DNA of 64,000 nt from an uncultured Chloroflexia bacterium (GCA_963840145.1 CAWIXR010000002.1:325666-389665); one strand, 5' to 3'; numbered from the stretch's first letter, positions 49,601 to 56,812 are shown. Notes: generated from the sequence alone by a model not told the origin. Made by a program: numbers and translations.

Positions 49601-49744
49601 GCTGGCCAGACTCTAGCCGATCACGAACCCCGACCTTCCAATCGGCTGGTAATCGGCTGATAATCGGTCGCCGCTAGAGTGGCCTGCGAGCACCGCCGCT
49701 GGCAGGCGGCGGCATCGGTGTCTCATGCGCCGGGAGACCGTCGA

Positions 49745-52700
49745 TTGTCGGAGATCCAGCACGCCTACCCGCTGATCCTCAACAAGGTCGCGTCGCCCCA
49801 CTACGCGACGCCGCTGCTGCGTCGGGCGCGCCTGGTCGAGTGGATGAACGAGGCAGCCAACTGCCGAGCAGTCGTGGTCGCCGCCGATGCCGGCTACGGC
49901 AAGACGACGCTGCTCTGGCAATGGGAGCGCGAGGTCCCGTTCCCCTGCTACTGGTACAAGCTCGACCGCAACGACCGGGACTGGACGTTCCACGTCAGCT
50001 ATCTGATCGAGGCGATCGCCAAGCGCCACGAGGGGTTCGGGCGTCGCGCGCACTCGATGCTCCAGCAGATGGGTGGACCGGGCTCGTCACGGCCGGGCGT
50101 CGCGGCCTACCTGCTGGCGGAGATGCACCAGCGCCTGACCGAGCCGTGCACGTTCATCATCGACGACTGGCAGTACGTCAATGCGGTCACCGAGGTGCGC
50201 GGCCTCTGGAACCAAATCCTGCGAGATGCACCGCCGACCTGTCGATTCGTCTTCGCATCACGCGTCAAGCCGCGCCTCCAGTTCGCGCGGTTCAAGACGC
50301 ACGGCGGCTACGCCGAGCTCAGGACCGATGCGCTCCGCTTCACGGAGCCGGAGATCGGCGAGCTATTCCGGGACGTGTACAACGACCCGCTCGACCCATC
50401 AGAGCTCACCGAGCTCGAGCAGCGCACCGAGGGCTGGGCGGCATCCCTCCAGCTCGTCGAGGTGTCGCTGCGCGAGCGCACCTCGCTTGACGAGCGGCGC
50501 GACTTCATCCGCTCCATCACCGCCACGACCGATAGCGCTCTCTTCGAGTTCCTTGCCGAGGAGGTGCTCGACCAGCAGCCGGAGGAGACGCGAAACTTCC
50601 TGCTGACGACCTCGATCCTTCAGCAGATCACGCCAGAGGTCGCGGAGCGCCTCGCCGGCGTCCACGACGGCCGCCGCGAGCTGACCGATCTCGAGCATCG
50701 CGGCCTGTTCACGAACCGGCTCGATGAGAATCGCTACCGATATCACAACCTGTTCCGCGAGTTCCTCGAGCGCCGCCTGATCAACGACCGCTCCGAGGCC
50801 GAGGTCATCGGTCTCCACATCCACGCGGCCTCCTACTTCGAGACCACCGAACAGTGGCCAGAGGCGATCCACCACTATCTCCGCGCCGGCCTCCAGCGCC
50901 AGGCCGCCCGACTCATCGCGAAGTACGGCGAGGATGTGGTGGCGCATGGCGGCCTCGGCCGGGTCGACGAATGGCTCCGGCAGCTTCCGGCTGGCCTGAT
51001 CAAGCAGAACGCGAGGCTCAGCCTGTTTTGGCGAAGCGTGTGGATTCCATGGCCAGTGGGATGGCGCCGTTGAGGCCCTTTCACGCGCCCGTGACTACTT
51101 CGCGCGTAAGGGCGATCGTCGAATGCAAGCACTCGCCTGCCTGAAGTTGAGCACGATCTACATCCACTTGGGCAACGTCGAGTTGGGCTGTGAAGTTGCG
51201 GACGAGGGCATCGAACTCGTCCCGGCAGACGCCATCGGGACTCGGCTGAGACTCGAAGGAAATGTTGCGGTCACACGGACCTGCTGACGCAGTCAGCCGA
51301 TGCTGTCGTCGCCGAATGCGAACGGATCGCCGTCGAGGCCGAGGCGCGAGATCTTGACCACATCGCAGCGATCGCCTATCACAACGCTGGCGAGACCTTG
51401 GTGAGGATGGGCAGGGTTGACGAGGCAATCGACAGCCTGAGCGAGCGGCAGCATTCTGGGGCGACGCACCCACGAGTCCATTCGCCGATCACTCAGGATC
51501 TGGTGAAAGCTCTGCTGATGGCCGGACAAATCGCGAAGGCGAGAGCCGTCGCAACAGAGGGCCTCCAGCGGACCAAGCCGTGGACAAGGTCGAGCGCGGA
51601 AGCAGCCGACGGCATGGCAGCCGTCTTGATCTCTGATGGGAAGTTCGTCGGAGGCAGCTTGCCCTTCTCGATGGGGCGCTGCGCGATCGCGGTGCCCTCG
51701 GGGGCGTTGGAGTCACACCTCATGGCGCAACGCGCGTCGATGCCCTGTTCCTGTCCGGGAGCCTCGCCAGACCAGATGAAGAGGCCAGCTGAAGGACTGG
51801 AGCAGGTTGGACTCCCGATACGTGACTGATGCGAGCGTCGCGGACGCACTCTCGGCTCACACCGCTGGCGACTGTCGTGGGAAGTGTCGAGATGCAATGA
51901 CCAGGATCTCAAGCAGACGGCAAGCGCGGCATGCGCCTGACCATGCTCGCCGGGATGGTGAAGATTGGTGTGCTTGCATTCGAACATGGACACACGCGAG
52001 ACATCGATCGCGCCTTGGCGAACGGTGCGGGAGACCCTGGACGCTGGCATCGGGACCGGGCTCCGATGGTGGTTGCGCCGATACGCTGCGCATGCGTCGA
52101 CGGCACTGCGGGTCGACGGCGGTGTTGAAGTGATTTGCCGCCTGGCGGAGCTGGATCCTGACGGCTGGCGTCCTGCATTGATCGATGTCCTCGAGGTTGC
52201 TGAGGGCCGCGACCGCGCGCAACTCTTGGAATCCTCTCGCACACCTGGCGAACAAGTCCACCGTCGATGCACTAAGGCGATCGACGGGCACGATGTCGCG
52301 GAGCTTCGCCGCGGACTTCGGACGACTCAGGCAGCACGGCTGTTCCTCCGAACGTTTCGGCAGGATGAGCCTCAACCGGGCTGACTGGAATGGTCCTGAC
52401 GATCAGCGTCGACAAGAAGCGTGTTCGATTGCTCTTGGCTCTTGCTAGCTGCGCGAGCCCATGCCGACCTCAGCCGGGACCTGTGCGTGGAGATCCTGTG
52501 GCCAGACGCGGATGCTGACGCAGCGGTGAACAACCTCAATCAGACGGTGTTCCAGCTCCGCCGATTCATCGACTCGGACTATCACGGCGGCGACAGCCCC
52601 GAGTATGTGACGAGTACATCCGAACAGGTCTCTTTGAATCCCGAGTTGATCCACACGGACCTCAGCCGAACTCCGACGATTGCCGCACACGCTCGATGGC

Positions 52701-53138
52701 GCTGACTGGAGCCAGCGGCAGCACATAGCGCGACGCTCGATCTCGCTGATCCGCGGTGAGTTTCTCGCTGATCTCGCATACGAGGAGTGGTCGTCGACGC
52801 AACAAGTCCGAGTCCACAGCGAGGTGCGTGATCTCTTGCTACCGATCGCACTGGCTTCGCGTGCTGACTTCGACGTCGACGTTAGTGTCCAGGCTGCCGC
52901 AGCACTGCTGATGCTTGATCCGTGGGATGAGAAAGCCGTCGTCGCCATGGCGGACGGACTCGCTCGCTCGGGACGGCGAGTGGCGGCCCGCACCCTTATC
53001 ACCGACTTCGCGAGCCGGTATGAGCGCGAACTCGACGAACGTCCATCGGAGGAGTTTATGCACTCCGTGACCGTCCTCGGCAACGTCCCAGTCAAGCCCA
53101 CATTGACCACTGACCGAGACTCATCGCTTGCCGCTTGA
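49745..53138 (+). pseudogene. MalT-like STAND NTPase/TPR regulator with C-terminal wHTH-BTAD; multiple frameshifts
   Basis: ADAGYGKTT, IIDDW, TEGWAASL, YRYHNLFREFL; fragments in other frames give LWPD...NLNQTVFQLRR and RGEFLAD..YEEW...LDPWDE (BTAD). The frame breaks repeatedly from about 51030, possibly through sequencing error. Confidence 0.8.
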
Positions 53139-53163
53139 CTTTTCTGCGGGGATAGCCTAGAGT
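53135..53163 (+). promoter_or_regulatory. Sigma70-type promoter for the riboswitch/peptide operon
   Basis: TTGACT-N17-TAGAGT. Confidence 0.6.
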
Positions 53164-53190
53164 ACTAGGCGTTCGCAGTACTTTAGTACT

Positions 53191-53263
53191 CGGCAGGACG
53201 CGCAGATCCATCGGCTGAACCTGGGCACTTGGGCCGATGGGGAGCAAGTAGTGCAACCGACCG
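53191..53263 (+). promoter_or_regulatory. c-di-GMP-II riboswitch aptamer
   Basis: GGACGC...CCATCGGC stem, TGGGCACTTG loop, GGCCGATGG, GGAGCAAGTAGTGCAACCGACCG 3' signature; GCAC/GTGC pseudoknot. Confidence 0.88.
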
Positions 53264-53373
53264 TTCCGTCACCGGAGTGTGTCGGTTGATACGTCCGTAA
53301 TCGGAAGAGGGCACCTTCTGATGTCTCGAGAAAACTTCAAGGGCTGGTAAGTCCCAGCCCAGTGAGGAACAGC

Positions 53374-53472
53374 ATGCGGGCATCGATTCGTCAATGGATC
53401 GCGCTGCTTGTCAGCCTCGGATCCATCGTCGCCTTGGCACTTGCCGGGGGAGCTGGCGTCCGGGGCTTGTAG
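53374..53472 (+). CDS. Small peptide (32 aa), putative signalling-peptide precursor; absent from the ORF track
   Basis: MRASIRQWIALLVSLGSIVALALAGGAGVRGL; GAGGA RBS; first ORF after the riboswitch. Confidence 0.7.
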   Translation: MRASIRQWIALLVSLGSIVALALAGGAGVRGL

Positions 53473-53514
53473 AGGCGCGATGCTAGACTCGCGACCTCAC
53501 AGTAATGTGATGTC

Positions 53515-54897
53515 GTGACCCCGGCAGTTCAGCGCCTCATCCTCGCAACCGTAGCCGTCGCAGTTCTTGCAATTGCGGCGGCTCTTTTGTGGTTCCCACT
53601 CCGACCGGAGATCGGGGGACCCATCGGAGTCGCTTACTGGACGGTCCTGGCTCTGGCGGCGAGCGCGCTGCCGGTGCAGCTCCCGCGCGGATCGATCGTG
53701 TCAGTGGGCGCGGCACCGATCCATTGCCGCGACGCATCTTGGGCGGGCCAATCGCCGGCGCCGCCGTCGGCGTGATCGGGACCCCGACCTTCGCGAGCTC
53801 AGGGGTCAGATTCCGTGGTACGGAACGCTGTTCAACCACGCGGAGCTGGCGATCTCTGGCGTCGCGGCTGGCATCACGTTTGTCCTCACAGCCGAGCTCC
53901 TGGGCGGGGAGGGCTTCTCGTTCTTCAGCGCGCATTCATTCGTGGCGGCCCTGCTCGCCGGAGTCGTCTTCCTGTCCGTGAACTTCTCGCTGACGCTGCT
54001 CGCGGTGTAGTGCTCGCACTGGCGCGTCCATCTCAACGATCTGGGCGGAGGACGTCGGCGCGGTTGCGATCAGCTTCGTCGGCTTGATCCCCATCGGTTG
54101 GTTGATGGCGCAGACCTTCCTGCTCCCGAACAGCATCGGATGGTGGGCAGTGGCCCTGTTCGCCGTCCCGCTCTTCACGACACGCGTGTGCCTACGCTCG
54201 GTACGTCGAGACGCGGGAGCTGTTCGAGCAGACGATCGAGGCGCTCTCGAAGGCCGTCGACGCGCGCGACCCGTACACGCGCAACCACTCGAGCCGGGTC
54301 AGCCACATCGCTGAGGCGATGTGCCGCGTGATGCGGCTGCCGGAGAACGAGATCGAGCGCATCAAGTGGGCCGGGCTGCTGCACGACATCGGAAAGATCG
54401 GCATCCGCGACAACGTGCTGCTGAAGGAGGGGCCGCTGGACAAGAGCGAGCGAATCCTCATGAACCAGCACCCGACCATCGGCGCGGAGATCGTGGCGCC
54501 GGCGCGCCAGCTGGCCACCGAGGCGCCGCTGATCCGGGCCCATCACGAGTGGATCAACGGCTCCGGCTATCCGGACGGCCGTGAGGCACTCGACATCCCG
54601 CGCGGCGCGCGCGTTCTCACGATCGCCGACGCATACGAGGCGATGACCTCCTCGCGCCCCTACCGCAAGACCCCGCTAACCCACGAGCAGGCCGTCGACC
54701 AGCTCGAGCGCTTCAGCGGCATCCAGTTCGACCCGGAGATCGTGCCGATCCTGGTCGGCCTGGATCGGTCCATCCTCGACCGCCCGCCCGACCGCGACGA
54801 CGAGCTGCCCACCATGCTCCACCAGCCCCTCCCACGAGACGTGCCCCCGTCGCCGGAGCAGCCGCGCACTGCCCTGGCCTCGGACGATGTTTCTTAG
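53515..54897 (+). pseudogene. Membrane-sensor HD-GYP c-di-GMP phosphodiesterase (N-terminal multi-TM, MASE-like); about 5 frameshifts
   Basis: TM segments spread over three frames (LPVQLP.G..VSV, LGGP, LFNHAELAIS); intact C-terminal DARDPYT..HS.RV, LLHDIGK, HHEW.NGSGYPDG, IADAYEAMTS.RPYR, QFDP. Confidence 0.85.
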
Positions 54898-56812
54898 CAC
54901 CATCCTCCTCGCGCTCATCGTGGGCGCACTGGCCGGGGGAGGCGTTCCCGCGGCTGGCGGACCTGAAGCTGCGCTGGGTCTGGCTGCTCTTCGCCGCGCT
55001 GCTGCTGCGCCTCCTTGCCGGGCTGAGCCGAGAGACCGGCATCGCCGCCGACATCCCGACCGGCTGGGCCTTCATCCTCGCCTACGGCCTGATCTTCATC
55101 TGGCTCTGGGGCAACTGGCGCGTGCCGGGGCTCCAGATCGCCGCGGTCGGCATCGGCGCGAACATGGCCGCCGTCCTCCTCAACGCCGGCCAGATGCCGA
55201 TCTGGTCGGCCGCCTTCTTCGCCGCCGGCTTCGACGAGTCGGTCATCGCCAACGATCCCTTCCACTTCCTCCTTCGAGCCGAGACGGTCGCGGACTTCGT
55301 CGCAAGCGGCGGGCTCTTCGGCGACGTCATTCCGCTGCCGATCCCGATCATCCGCGACGTGATCAGCATCGGCGACGTGCTGCTGGCGCTCGGGATCTTC
55401 TGGGCCGTCGTCTACTCGATGACCCGCACCGACGCGCCGTCGCGCGGCGCGCTGGCGCTCGGCGCGACGACGGTGCATGCGGCCCGCGACGGCCACGCCC
55501 GGAACGGCCGGCGCGGTGTACGCCGAGGCGCGCGAGATCCCGCGCCGAGGTCTCCGAGGCCGGCGCCGAGCTGGCGGGCATGCGGCGCCAGTCGCCGTAC
55601 CTGCGCCTCTTCGCGAACCGCAACTTCAGCCTGCTGTGGACCGGCCAGCTCATCTCGCTGATCGGCGACCGGATCCACGTCATCGCGCTCGGCGCGCTCG
55701 TCGCCGGTCGCGGCACCGATCTCGAGGTCGGCATCGTCTTCGCCATGACCGCGGTCCCGAGCATCTTCCTGGGCCCGGTCGCCGGCGTGCTCGTGGACCG
55801 ATGGGACCGCCGCCGCACGATGATCGCCTGCGACCTCGTCCGCGCCGTTCTCGTGCTGGCGGTGCCGGTGGCGTTCGAGATCCACATCGGCCTCGTCTAC
55901 GCGAGCGCCTTCGCGCTCGCCACCGTGACCCTCCTCTTCCGCCCGGCCAAGACCGCGGTGATCCCCGACGTCGTCGGCGAGCGCGACCTGGTGGCCGCCA
56001 ACTCCGCGCTGTCGGTGCCGGAGACCGCGGCGGACCTCATCGGCTTCCCGATCGCGGGCCTGATCGTCACGGCACTGGCCGGGGTGCTCGGTGCGGCCTT
56101 CGTCCTCGACGCCGGGACGTACGTCGTCTCGGCGGTGCTGCTGTGGGCGATGATCCTGCCGCGCCAGGTGTCCGAATACACCGAGCGCATGTCGGTTCGC
56201 GCGCTGTGGCGCGAGATGCGCGAGGGCTTCGCCTTCCTGTGGAGGCAGGCGGCGCTGCGCTCGAACACGCTGCTCTCCGCCGTCGCGCAGGTCGCGGTCG
56301 GCGCCGAGATCGTCGTCAGCCTGATCTACGCCCGCGACGTCGTCGACCGCGGCACGCTGAGCTTCGAGCAGATGTACGCGCTGCTGCTGACGGCCCTCGC
56401 GGTCGGCAGCGTGGTGGCCGGGGTCGCCGTCGGCGCCATCGGCGATCGGTTCCCGAAGGGGCCGATGGTGATCGTCGGCTTCATCGGCATGGGGCTCTCA
56501 CTCGTGCTCACCGGCCTCGTGACCGATCCGATCCTGGCGCTCGTCTCCTTCTTCCTGGGCGGCGCCTTCAACATGGTCTTCATCATCCCCACCGTCACGC
56601 TGTTCCAGGAGCTCACCCCGCAGCGGCTGATGGGCCGGGTCGTTGCCAGCCGACAGGCGCTTGTGTTCGGCTCGATCGCCGCCTCGATGGGGCTCTCCGG
56701 GTACCTCAGCGGCGTCATCGGTCCGGCGCAGGTGCTGGTCATCAGCGGCGCCATCTGTGCGGCCGCCGGCGCCGTCGGCATCCTCATTCCGTCGATGCGC
56801 AACGCTCGGTAG
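54887..56812 (+). CDS. DUF5317-MFS transporter fusion (three apparent frameshifts restoring the frame)
   Basis: The alternative frame at 54945-55475 reads RLADLKLRW...GANMAAVLLNAGQMPI...FGDVIPLP..VISIGDVLL (DUF5317); from about 55580 an MFS with NRNFSLLWTGQLIS..GD and GVLVDRWDRRRTM. Confidence 0.75.
   Translation: MFLSTILLALIVGALAGGGVPAAGGPEAALGLAALRRAAAAPPCRAEPRDRHRRRHPDRLGLHPRLRPDLHLALGQLARAGAPDRRGRHRREHGRRPPQRRPDADLVGRLLRRRLRRVGHRQRSLPLPPSSRDGRGLRRKRRALRRRHSAADPDHPRRDQHRRRAAGARDLLGRRLLDDPHRRAVARRAGARRDDGACGPRRPRPERPARCTPRRARSRAEVSEAGAELAGMRRQSPYLRLFANRNFSLLWTGQLISLIGDRIHVIALGALVAGRGTDLEVGIVFAMTAVPSIFLGPVAGVLVDRWDRRRTMIACDLVRAVLVLAVPVAFEIHIGLVYASAFALATVTLLFRPAKTAVIPDVVGERDLVAANSALSVPETAADLIGFPIAGLIVTALAGVLGAAFVLDAGTYVVSAVLLWAMILPRQVSEYTERMSVRALWREMREGFAFLWRQAALRSNTLLSAVAQVAVGAEIVVSLIYARDVVDRGTLSFEQMYALLLTALAVGSVVAGVAVGAIGDRFPKGPMVIVGFIGMGLSLVLTGLVTDPILALVSFFLGGAFNMVFIIPTVTLFQELTPQRLMGRVVASRQALVFGSIAASMGLSGYLSGVIGPAQVLVISGAICAAAGAVGILIPSMRNAR

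Follow-up and report, generated by a model that had tools for sequence, protein, structure and literature searches.

A conserved micropeptide gene family predicted between a c-di-GMP-II riboswitch and a MASE9-HD-GYP phosphodiesterase gene in Limnocylindria

Introduction

Which role could a reading frame of 32 codons have between a riboswitch for the second messenger cyclic di-GMP (c-di-GMP) and the gene for a c-di-GMP phosphodiesterase? This question is raised by a stretch of 64,000 nucleotides from an uncultured Chloroflexia bacterium (GCA_963840145.1, CAWIXR010000002.1), hereafter the window, which corresponds to positions 325666-389665 of contig 2 of a metagenome-assembled genome (2.47 Mb, 8 contigs, 92.6% complete). 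The frame, which we call sORF2, lies on the + strand, as do all features described here, at 53374..53472 of the window (ATG at 53374, 32 codons, TAG at 53470-53472), and its translation is MRASIRQWIALLVSLGSIVALALAGGAGVRGL. It is preceded by a Shine-Dalgarno (SD) sequence, GAGGA, at 53364-53368, which ends five bases 5' of the ATG, and the peptide has a basic N-end, a hydrophobic core and the segment LAGGA followed by five residues, with no Cys. These elements had been pointed out in an initial annotation of the window, which took the frame to be the first cistron under riboswitch control and the precursor of a short secreted pheromone, and all of them are present in the sequence. Here we report that, judged from sequence comparison, sORF2 is a real and conserved gene with protein-level selection and a fixed genomic context. 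As to its function, we tentatively favour an N-in/C-out single-span micropeptide that would be the co-induced partner, or a tethered ligand, of the MASE9-HD-GYP phosphodiesterase encoded downstream.

Conservation and selection of sORF2

The length of sORF2 is by itself within chance, as there are 55 open reading frames (ORFs) of at least 25 amino acids (aa) per 5 kb of this G+C-rich DNA, and it is thus conservation, not the ORF itself, that makes sORF2 real. A 421-base query around sORF2 found matches in 17 of 41 related genomes (G000 among them), and in the matched loci the frame is open, with an ATG after an SD site and a stop at the same place. A further 80 loci were collected via the downstream HD-GYP enzyme (573 of 598 candidate stretches were confirmed, and the best 80 used), and the pooled loci were reduced to 60 non-redundant ones with a recognisable aptamer. 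One of these was left out, its sequence ending 154 bases past the aptamer; the 59 complete loci all carry a sORF2 homologue behind the c-di-GMP-II aptamer, 51 with the strict C-terminal pattern, three with a relaxed pattern, two with variant tails and three split by frameshifts, the last from few-contig assemblies.

Exactly 32 aa are found in 43 of 48 distinct sORF2 peptides, and the mean entropy over 43 distinct 96-base sequences is 1.07 bits at the first codon position, 0.63 at the second and 1.54 at the third. At the codons for A22, A24, G25, G26 and G31 the first two positions are fixed (zero bits) and at A27 they are nearly invariant (0.27 bit at position 2), with 1.0-1.9 bits at the third position of all of these codons. 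The ratio of nonsynonymous to synonymous substitution rates (dN/dS, Nei-Gojobori, NG86) is 0.31 in frame, from the 668 pairs whose dS could be used, and reaches 2.3 (1 pair) and 2.4 (593 pairs) when the frame is shifted. A22 is present in 47/48 peptides and A24 in 48/48, position 23 is variable, and the eight residues after A24 are the best-conserved stretch of the peptide, which gives a conserved tail A-x-A-G-G-A-[GS]-h-[KR]-G-W; the pattern used to collect the peptides loosely restricts columns 24-32, where the conservation observed is far tighter than the pattern. The variable C-terminal tails expected by the initial annotation are therefore not seen, the tail being the most conserved part across the whole class. 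An SD-like motif precedes 39 of the 48 homologues, compared with 122 of 1000 background positions (these and later SD counts were made against an assumed anti-Shine-Dalgarno sequence).

Could sORF2 nevertheless be a chance ORF in G+C-rich DNA, conserved merely because of leader RNA structure? ORFs of this length are common, as said, and the end of sORF2, GGCTGGTAG, repeats the RNA-conserved end of the preceding small frame uORF1 (see below). However, up to 1.9 bits of third-position entropy stand over invariant first and second positions, length and stop are conserved, and dN/dS is low in frame and above 2 out of frame, so that this explanation is refuted at the sequence level and we leave it next to no probability. 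The initial annotation had proposed such an examination of frame, stop and dN/dS in relatives, which sORF2 passed clearly; its supposition of a genuine small coding gene is borne out both by the homologues in all complete loci and by a codon pattern of purifying selection.

Distribution of the sORF2 family

A profile of 42 sORF2 peptides, searched against 1.84 billion cluster representatives, retrieved 66 proteins at E≤1e-3, which have 29 or 32 residues or are longer gene calls sharing the same C-terminus; the longer calls translate GUGCAACCGAC of the aptamer as VQPTD, and one match of 454 residues looks spurious. In nine clusters of the family the named members are 'hypothetical protein' throughout, and the neighbours of sORF2 in a protein atlas are only unnamed small-protein clusters (0.89-0.91). 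No family match was obtained for the window peptide in Pfam (E≤0.01), or for this peptide and one relative in NCBIfam (E≤1). Gene callers overlook such genes, and the exact peptide of the window is missing from a collection of 15 billion proteins. Among the matches listed in a search of the printed literature, there was no description of the family or of the arrangement. By these sequence comparisons, sORF2 is a member of an undescribed micropeptide family.

When 401 genomes of the phylum were searched with the profile in six frames, sORF2 was found in 28, including 13 of 16 genomes of the window's family and 12 of 23 of a second family of Limnocylindria, and in none of six genomes from two other families of this class. 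Only two marginal matches (E ~2e-4) fall outside Limnocylindria, one of them within a 540-residue frame. The RF01786 aptamer has the same range: tallied by family in 101 genomes of the class (among them genome G473, flagged unpublished and used for no other statement), it occurs in 27/33, 26/29, 0/33, 0/4 and 0/1, and its best match in each genome is located 100-200 bases 5' of the sORF2 gene. Among the genomes searched, the sORF2 family is thus found only in two families of the class Limnocylindria (Chloroflexota). The window's own genome has a single sORF2 copy, at the window locus (E 1.6e-12; next match E 0.2).

Membrane features of the peptide and the downstream enzyme

The sORF2 peptides have an N-end charge of +2, an uncharged stretch with a median of 22 residues and a best 19-residue Kyte-Doolittle mean of 1.98, followed by a short tail that contains a single basic residue and ends in Trp. 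The initial annotation had likened the product to a signal peptide lacking the lipoprotein Cys, and the family does look like a signal peptide or membrane anchor of this kind: no peptide (0/48) has a Cys after LAG, and the two of 48 that contain a Cys have it at position 8. As a pattern, the layout of a signal peptidase I substrate is present, with a basic n-region, an h-region and small residues at -3 and -1.

The gene that follows, at 53515..54897, codes for a MASE9 + HD-GYP c-di-GMP phosphodiesterase (Pfam HD_5/HD on the last piece of the interrupted window frame) and starts 42 bases past sORF2 in the window and 36-69 nt past it in relatives. Intact relatives of this enzyme match HD_5 with 115.6 bits and MASE9 with 38.7 bits (Pfam). 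The structure of an intact close relative (from locus L069) was modelled with AlphaFold2 (mean pLDDT 86.2); the C-terminal half of the model matches solved HD-GYP domains with Z 24.8-26.1, and residues 1-206, the MASE9 domain (53515 to ~54130 in the window), can be aligned in full with S components of energy-coupling factor (ECF) transporters. The best of these matches is 4m5b (Z 15.4, rmsd 3.3, 189 residues, identity 12%); RibU, FolT, BioY, ThiT, PanT and CbiM follow with Z 11-13, and for helical bundles a Z below ~13 may reflect a common helical arrangement. This resemblance hints at a MASE9 module that forms a pocket for ligand binding. In their preprint, Galperin and Chou propose that MASE9 binds a ligand within the membrane (bioRxiv 10.1101/2021.11.05.467447).

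Seven HD-GYP loci in which the enzyme is 42-47% identical have no Rfam aptamer match at E≤0.01. The upstream region of six of them (L087, L089, L090, L091, L097 and L098) still contains, some 100-270 nt from the HD-GYP start, an ORF similar to uORF1 as well as a sORF2 homologue of 29 residues with the C-terminus LAGGAGV[RK]P[LV]. In turn, neither small ORF is present at twelve sub-threshold aptamer variants that precede genes for secreted or membrane proteins. The micro-ORFs thus travel with the phosphodiesterase and not with the riboswitch. The distant loci also have two GGGCAC copies upstream, where a diverged aptamer missed by the Rfam model is possible.

The riboswitch and its leader

The riboswitch that the initial annotation placed upstream of sORF2 is recovered as a c-di-GMP-II aptamer at 53188..53271, where RF01786 matches with 60.7 bits, above its gathering score of 53.5 (E 1.5e-12). 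The match covers all 84 model positions, which assigns the element to the c-di-GMP-II class, and the aptamer hairpin covaries across 43 loci. A hairpin at 53255..53287 reuses the 3' core of the aptamer (AACCGACC...) and the P1 strand, and is a candidate OFF-state terminator. Its fold is present in 58 of 59 loci, where it is built from 32 distinct sequences with a mean folding energy (dG) of -15.7 kcal/mol; the 12 nt after it contain 4.6 T on average, and its outer stem is also in the RNAalifold prediction. Sharing the aptamer 3' strand, this hairpin would compete with the ligand-bound fold, from which we take the riboswitch to be most likely an ON switch.

Between the aptamer and sORF2 lies a smaller frame, uORF1 (53321..53350), with nine codons, MSRENFKGW, and TAA. 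It is found in 56 of 60 loci, with nine codons in 46, eight in 9 and ten in one, so that every change in length preserves the frame, and it has an SD-like motif before it in 56/56. The ending is K-G/S/P-W/F/Y-stop in all 56, and the last codons are AAG in 52/56, GGC in 53/56 and TGG in 52/56, followed by TAA or TAG in 56/56; within the window's family these codons are fixed as RNA too, and synonymous changes inside uORF1 concern Arg (AGA/CGA/CGC) and Glu (GAA/GAG). In the second family uORF1 has a GTG start and reads (M)APESAKGW or similar, and in still more distant loci it is ME[AP]N...K[AS]W, with different codons. A K-small-W ending that persists despite different codons indicates that the end of uORF1 is kept at the amino-acid level, and by its sequence uORF1 is a candidate leader or stalling peptide. 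With a conserved frame of 8-10 codons, provided with its own SD site, before it, sORF2 is the second cistron behind the riboswitch, and not the first as initially annotated. A strict covariation of the two tails was rejected, a uORF1 ending in KGW being paired with KGW, RGW, QGW, RGL and RGF in sORF2.

The hairpin noticed just upstream of the sORF2 SD site does exist, at 53341..53360, with GGGCTGG (53341-53347), a 6-base loop and CCAGCCC (53354-53360), but it is no free element, since its 5' arm consists of the K-G-W codons of uORF1 and its loop contains the uORF1 stop codon. The fold encloses this stop codon in 56/56 loci (mean dG -11.6 kcal/mol, mean z -1.4). Another hairpin, CGGAAG-AGGGCAC-CTTCTG at 53302..53320, consists of columns that are invariant, or nearly so, across 43 loci; it has a predicted stem and includes a second GGGCAC (53309-14) and the SD site of uORF1.

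Past sORF2, the box TGnTAGACT is conserved in the alignment of 46 loci, at a distance of 10-12 nt from the stop (53481..53489 in the window), and resembles an extended -10 element. It is followed by a covarying hairpin at 53490..53517, whose 3' arm includes the GTG start of the HD-GYP gene; in 29 loci it has a mean dG of -17.8 and a mean z of -0.89, and pairs the start codon in 20. An SD-like motif is found at this start in only 4 of the 29 loci, against the same background as above. From their sequences, box and hairpin may serve either as an internal promoter followed by a short, structured leader or to couple the two genes. Two further possibilities were rejected: a third ORF beginning at the [AG]TGnTAGAC box (MLDSRPHSNVMS in the window) is conserved neither in length and frame nor in sequence past four residues, and for a read-through fusion of sORF2 and phosphodiesterase two in-frame stops intervene in the window, and only 12/29 loci have a gap divisible by three. 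Within the first 25 HD-GYP codons, at 53553-53593, there is a terminator-like hairpin (13 pairs) followed by CTTTTGTGGT (1 found versus 0.4 expected in shuffles).

Upstream of the aptamer, a consensus scan found TTGACT - 17 nt - TAGAGT at 53135..53163 (1 site versus 0.1 expected in shuffles), a promoter-like site and thus a candidate promoter. Three AGTACT palindromes (53161-66, 53177-82 and 53185-90) lie just 5' of the aptamer, with TAGTACTTTGGTAC kept in the alignments of relatives, and these may represent a -10 region or an operator of the regulator encoded upstream; in the distant clade a TAGTAC motif is also present 5' of the intergenic hairpin. A second RF01786 match in the window's own genome is weak (36.4 bits) and comes without ORFs of the uORF1 or sORF2 type. 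Many Limnocylindria genomes have extra sub-cutoff RF01786-like elements, of 28-52 bits and up to 12 per genome (loci L147-L158; genomes G017, G377, G284, G450, G244, G098, G332 and G440). In these the pseudoknot pair is altered on both sides, with a GGCCGCC loop and GGCGA instead of GGGCAC and GUGCA, and they sit 10-45 nt 5' of the starts of genes for secreted, lipoprotein or membrane proteins; judging by sequence and position, they seem to be a genuine variant riboswitch that controls translation.

Neighbouring genes, frame breaks and RNA reads

The locus is flanked by two genes that are conserved neighbours in relatives, the 3' one a constant one. The 5' one (49679..53138, in pieces) was assigned from Pfam on the pieces and an intact relative of 845 aa, and codes for a regulator with tetratricopeptide repeats (TPR), a winged helix-turn-helix (wHTH) of the Trans_reg_C family and a BTAD domain; it is absent at the second copy of the locus in one genome (L018). 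The 3' one, after the phosphodiesterase gene, codes for a fusion of DUF5317 with a major facilitator superfamily protein (MFS_3) and is frameshifted in the window (54887..56812; Pfam on the pieces and intact relatives of 640 aa). Among 35 ORFs of at least 140 aa at 39.6-64 kb, a Pfam scan found no processing, export or import genes for peptide signalling.

The HD-GYP frame of the window has five single-base indels relative to L069, near 53721, 53735, 53783, 54008 and 54190, and the DUF5317-MFS frame has two shifts; ClpB, PurH, GlpX and an NtrC-type gene are intact in the window. Frameshifts cluster at this locus (49679-56812), which is interrupted as well in further assemblies of few contigs (L004, L007, L008, L011, L055 and L056), and G+C is 62-63% at 51-54 kb versus 68-71% in the flanks. 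The breaks may be due to assembly error or to decay. The window's organism was found in none of the sequencing runs, where no more than 15% of the sampled words matched. At 80% likeness, four runs of RNA or presumed RNA gave matches only from contigs of relatives, single ones of which span 53306-53651, 53370-53554 and 53170-53423; depth is very high at 53236-53337, a figure confounded by sequence conservation and possible DNA carry-over.

Proposed role of sORF2

In the scheme that we propose, binding of c-di-GMP would keep the aptamer 3' strand from the terminator-like hairpin and so permit read-through, and a high c-di-GMP level would successively switch on uORF1 and sORF2, then the MASE9-HD-GYP phosphodiesterase and finally the DUF5317-MFS protein. 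As high c-di-GMP would thereby induce its own phosphodiesterase, the scheme amounts to a negative feedback on c-di-GMP. The sORF2 peptide would have its basic N-end in the cytoplasm, span the membrane with its ~22 uncharged residues and expose the invariant tail at the outer face; it would stay in the membrane and act together with MASE9, be it as a small subunit or by presenting a tail that MASE9 reads. Its translation would moreover bring ribosomes to the phosphodiesterase start, which has no SD site and lies within a hairpin, so that the two genes are probably translationally coupled. The S-component-like model, together with the proposed intramembrane ligand of MASE9, is the reason why we favour sORF2 as partner or tethered ligand of this domain, a preference that we hold as tentative. 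Topology, ON logic, partnership with MASE9 and coupling are all inferred from sequence.

Several observations weigh against this proposal. The invariant A-x-A right before the conserved 8-residue tail resembles a signal peptidase I substrate, and native signal peptides of the same lineage have similarly long hydrophobic regions; the helical moment of conservation over residues 8-24 peaks at 100 degrees and is insignificant (4360 of 20000 shuffles). The final residue in the window is L, where the family usually has W. The TGnTAGACT box could be a separate promoter of the phosphodiesterase gene, which would weaken the coupling idea, and the distant clade has a perfect terminator-like hairpin, GUAUGGAGGCGCC-UUUG-GGCGCCUCCAUAC-UUUU, between the sORF2 and HD-GYP genes. 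In the window sORF2 is intact though the phosphodiesterase is broken, and if the breaks are real the peptide outlives its proposed partner. The RNA libraries, finally, show only contigs of relatives. Neutral as to binding is a prediction of the complex between MASE9 (residues 1-240) and the peptide, made without controls from alignments of 29 rows for each part, which gave a score of 0.01, a mark of 0.32 and a partner pLDDT below 50.

Alternative explanations

The foremost alternative, which we regard as possible and yet rather doubtful, is that residues 1-24 are a Sec signal peptide, cut after A22-x-A24, and that the octapeptide GGA[GS]h[KR]GW (here GGAGVRGL) is released, to be sensed by MASE9 or imported and sensed by the upstream TPR regulator. 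The c-di-GMP level would then be tied to an autocrine or cell-cell cue, in a cell presumably with a single membrane. The n-region, h-region and A-x-A layout is that of such a precursor, all eight residues after the cut belong to the most conserved part of sORF2, and the distant clade retains a small residue at -1 with A, I or V at -3; the adjoining, conserved genes for the TPR-wHTH-BTAD regulator and for DUF5317-MFS (a 'transmembrane secretion effector') and the S-component-like fold of MASE9, a ligand-binding pocket module, would suit a sensed peptide as well. However, the cleavage is a putative one, the uncharged stretch suffices for a stable membrane span, and the invariant residues of A22-x-A24 and the tail also fit a small-residue motif for helix packing. 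Unlike pherotype-specific signals, the tail is near-identical across the whole class; a C39 exporter, an oligopeptide permease and a membrane protease are absent among the 35 ORFs scanned, and the upstream regulator is lacking at the second copy of L018. A composite in which a stop-codon-stalling relay at uORF1 and an exported octapeptide, docked in the MASE9 pocket and setting the phosphodiesterase, form a peptide layer on the second messenger seems to us improbable.

If the peptide stayed in the membrane, its target could also be other than MASE9: the DUF5317-MFS protein, a constant downstream neighbour, or the membrane itself, which a small, hydrophobic product with a basic N-end might perturb as type I toxins do, once induced at high c-di-GMP. 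We think this unlikely, as nothing favours DUF5317-MFS over MASE9 and the gene is single-copy and vertical, with fixed synteny across two families, unlike mobile toxin cassettes. At the other extreme, sORF2 might be a purely cis-acting leader with a functionless peptide, in which ribosomes translating the frame, or stalled at the end of it, open the hairpin downstream or block premature termination. The SD-poor and frequently hairpin-paired HD-GYP start, so close behind the sORF2 stop, agrees with such a role, as does uORF1, which directly precedes sORF2 and has a similar K-G-W-stop ending; short ORFs that stall at the stop codon are known, e.g., PepNL (PMC11890864). Yet selection spans the whole peptide, including a hydrophobic stretch that is needless for arrest within the tunnel, a ribosome at the sORF2 stop cannot reach a hairpin that starts ~18 nt further, and the distant clade changes the tail (RP[LV]) and keeps the hydrophobic part and LAGGAG, and we give this explanation very little credence. 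An arrest of the force-sensing MifM/SecM type was rejected for sORF2 on geometrical grounds, since a chain of 32 residues is still within the ribosome at the stop codon.

Comparison with known systems

The nearest precedent for sORF2, by analogy, is the CD1980.2 family of Clostridioides difficile, reported in 2026, small membrane-associated proteins encoded directly behind c-di-GMP riboswitches (PMC13724677). These are described there as proteins of 58 aa with four predicted helices and 5-7 paralogues, which stand under class I OFF riboswitches and promote sporulation. Going by this description, they share with sORF2 that they are small, unannotated or 'hypothetical', domainless and confined to a single lineage, and that they lie behind a c-di-GMP riboswitch; sORF2 differs in its 29-32 aa, its one span, its single copy, a class II aptamer that is probably ON, and the adjacent phosphodiesterase.

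Small single-span proteins that modulate larger membrane sensors or transporters include MgrB and SafA (with PhoQ), PmrR, AcrZ, MgtS and KdpF. They resemble sORF2 in size and in their single span, and the KdpF-like ones share the operon of their partner, as sORF2 does; sORF2 is unrelated to them in sequence and known from genes alone. Among the literature matches listed there was no small-protein partner for a c-di-GMP enzyme of this kind. Metal ECF S components, CbiM and NikM, need a small membrane partner, CbiN or NikN, which offers an analogy given the resemblance of the MASE9 model to S components, with the difference that proteins of the CbiN type are larger and unrelated to sORF2 in sequence.

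The Gram-positive signalling propeptides Phr, PapR, NprX, SHP and ComS are short precursors with a basic N-end, a hydrophobic segment and an active C-terminal part of 5-9 residues. The layout of sORF2 and the TPR-containing regulator next door are similar, whereas the sORF2 tail is class-wide and theirs are strain-specific, and no permease or processing protease is found nearby. The locus also departs from an RRNPP cassette: the upstream protein combines TPR with an OmpR-type wHTH (Trans_reg_C) and BTAD, which is STAND/SARP-like and, by Pfam, not of the RRNPP type, and the ORFs scanned at 39.6-64 kb include no permease or protease families, the genome beyond not having been searched. As for double-glycine leader peptides, the Pfam scan of the same 35 neighbouring ORFs found no C39-peptidase ABC exporter.

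The Mg2+ leader of mgtA likewise contains a short regulatory ORF, mgtL. Like mgtL and the stop-codon arrest peptides TnaC, SpeFL and PepNL (PMC11890864), uORF1 is a very short ORF, placed between the sensing RNA and the genes under its control, with C-terminal conservation at the stop and a hairpin at its end; its K-G-W ending differs from the arrest motifs considered, and it is known from sequence alone. The membrane modulators, CbiN, the propeptides and the leader-ORF systems are functional analogies to the locus and not families to which it belongs.

Biological implications

Small membrane proteins under riboswitches have only lately been recognised as c-di-GMP effectors, in C. difficile (PMC13724677). 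The family described here is an apparently unrelated one, fixed between a class II riboswitch and a membrane-sensor phosphodiesterase in two families of a widespread, uncultured soil and freshwater lineage. The pair of micro-ORFs, the hairpin at the stop codon and the SD-less start of the phosphodiesterase gene make the locus a compact model of combined control by a riboswitch and a leader ORF. If the octapeptide were indeed released, the bacterium would signal its c-di-GMP state to itself and to its neighbours. If, as we tentatively favour, the peptide is a partner or ligand of MASE9, it would provide the first functional handle on this uncharacterised sensor domain, and a testable case of a micropeptide that tunes c-di-GMP turnover.

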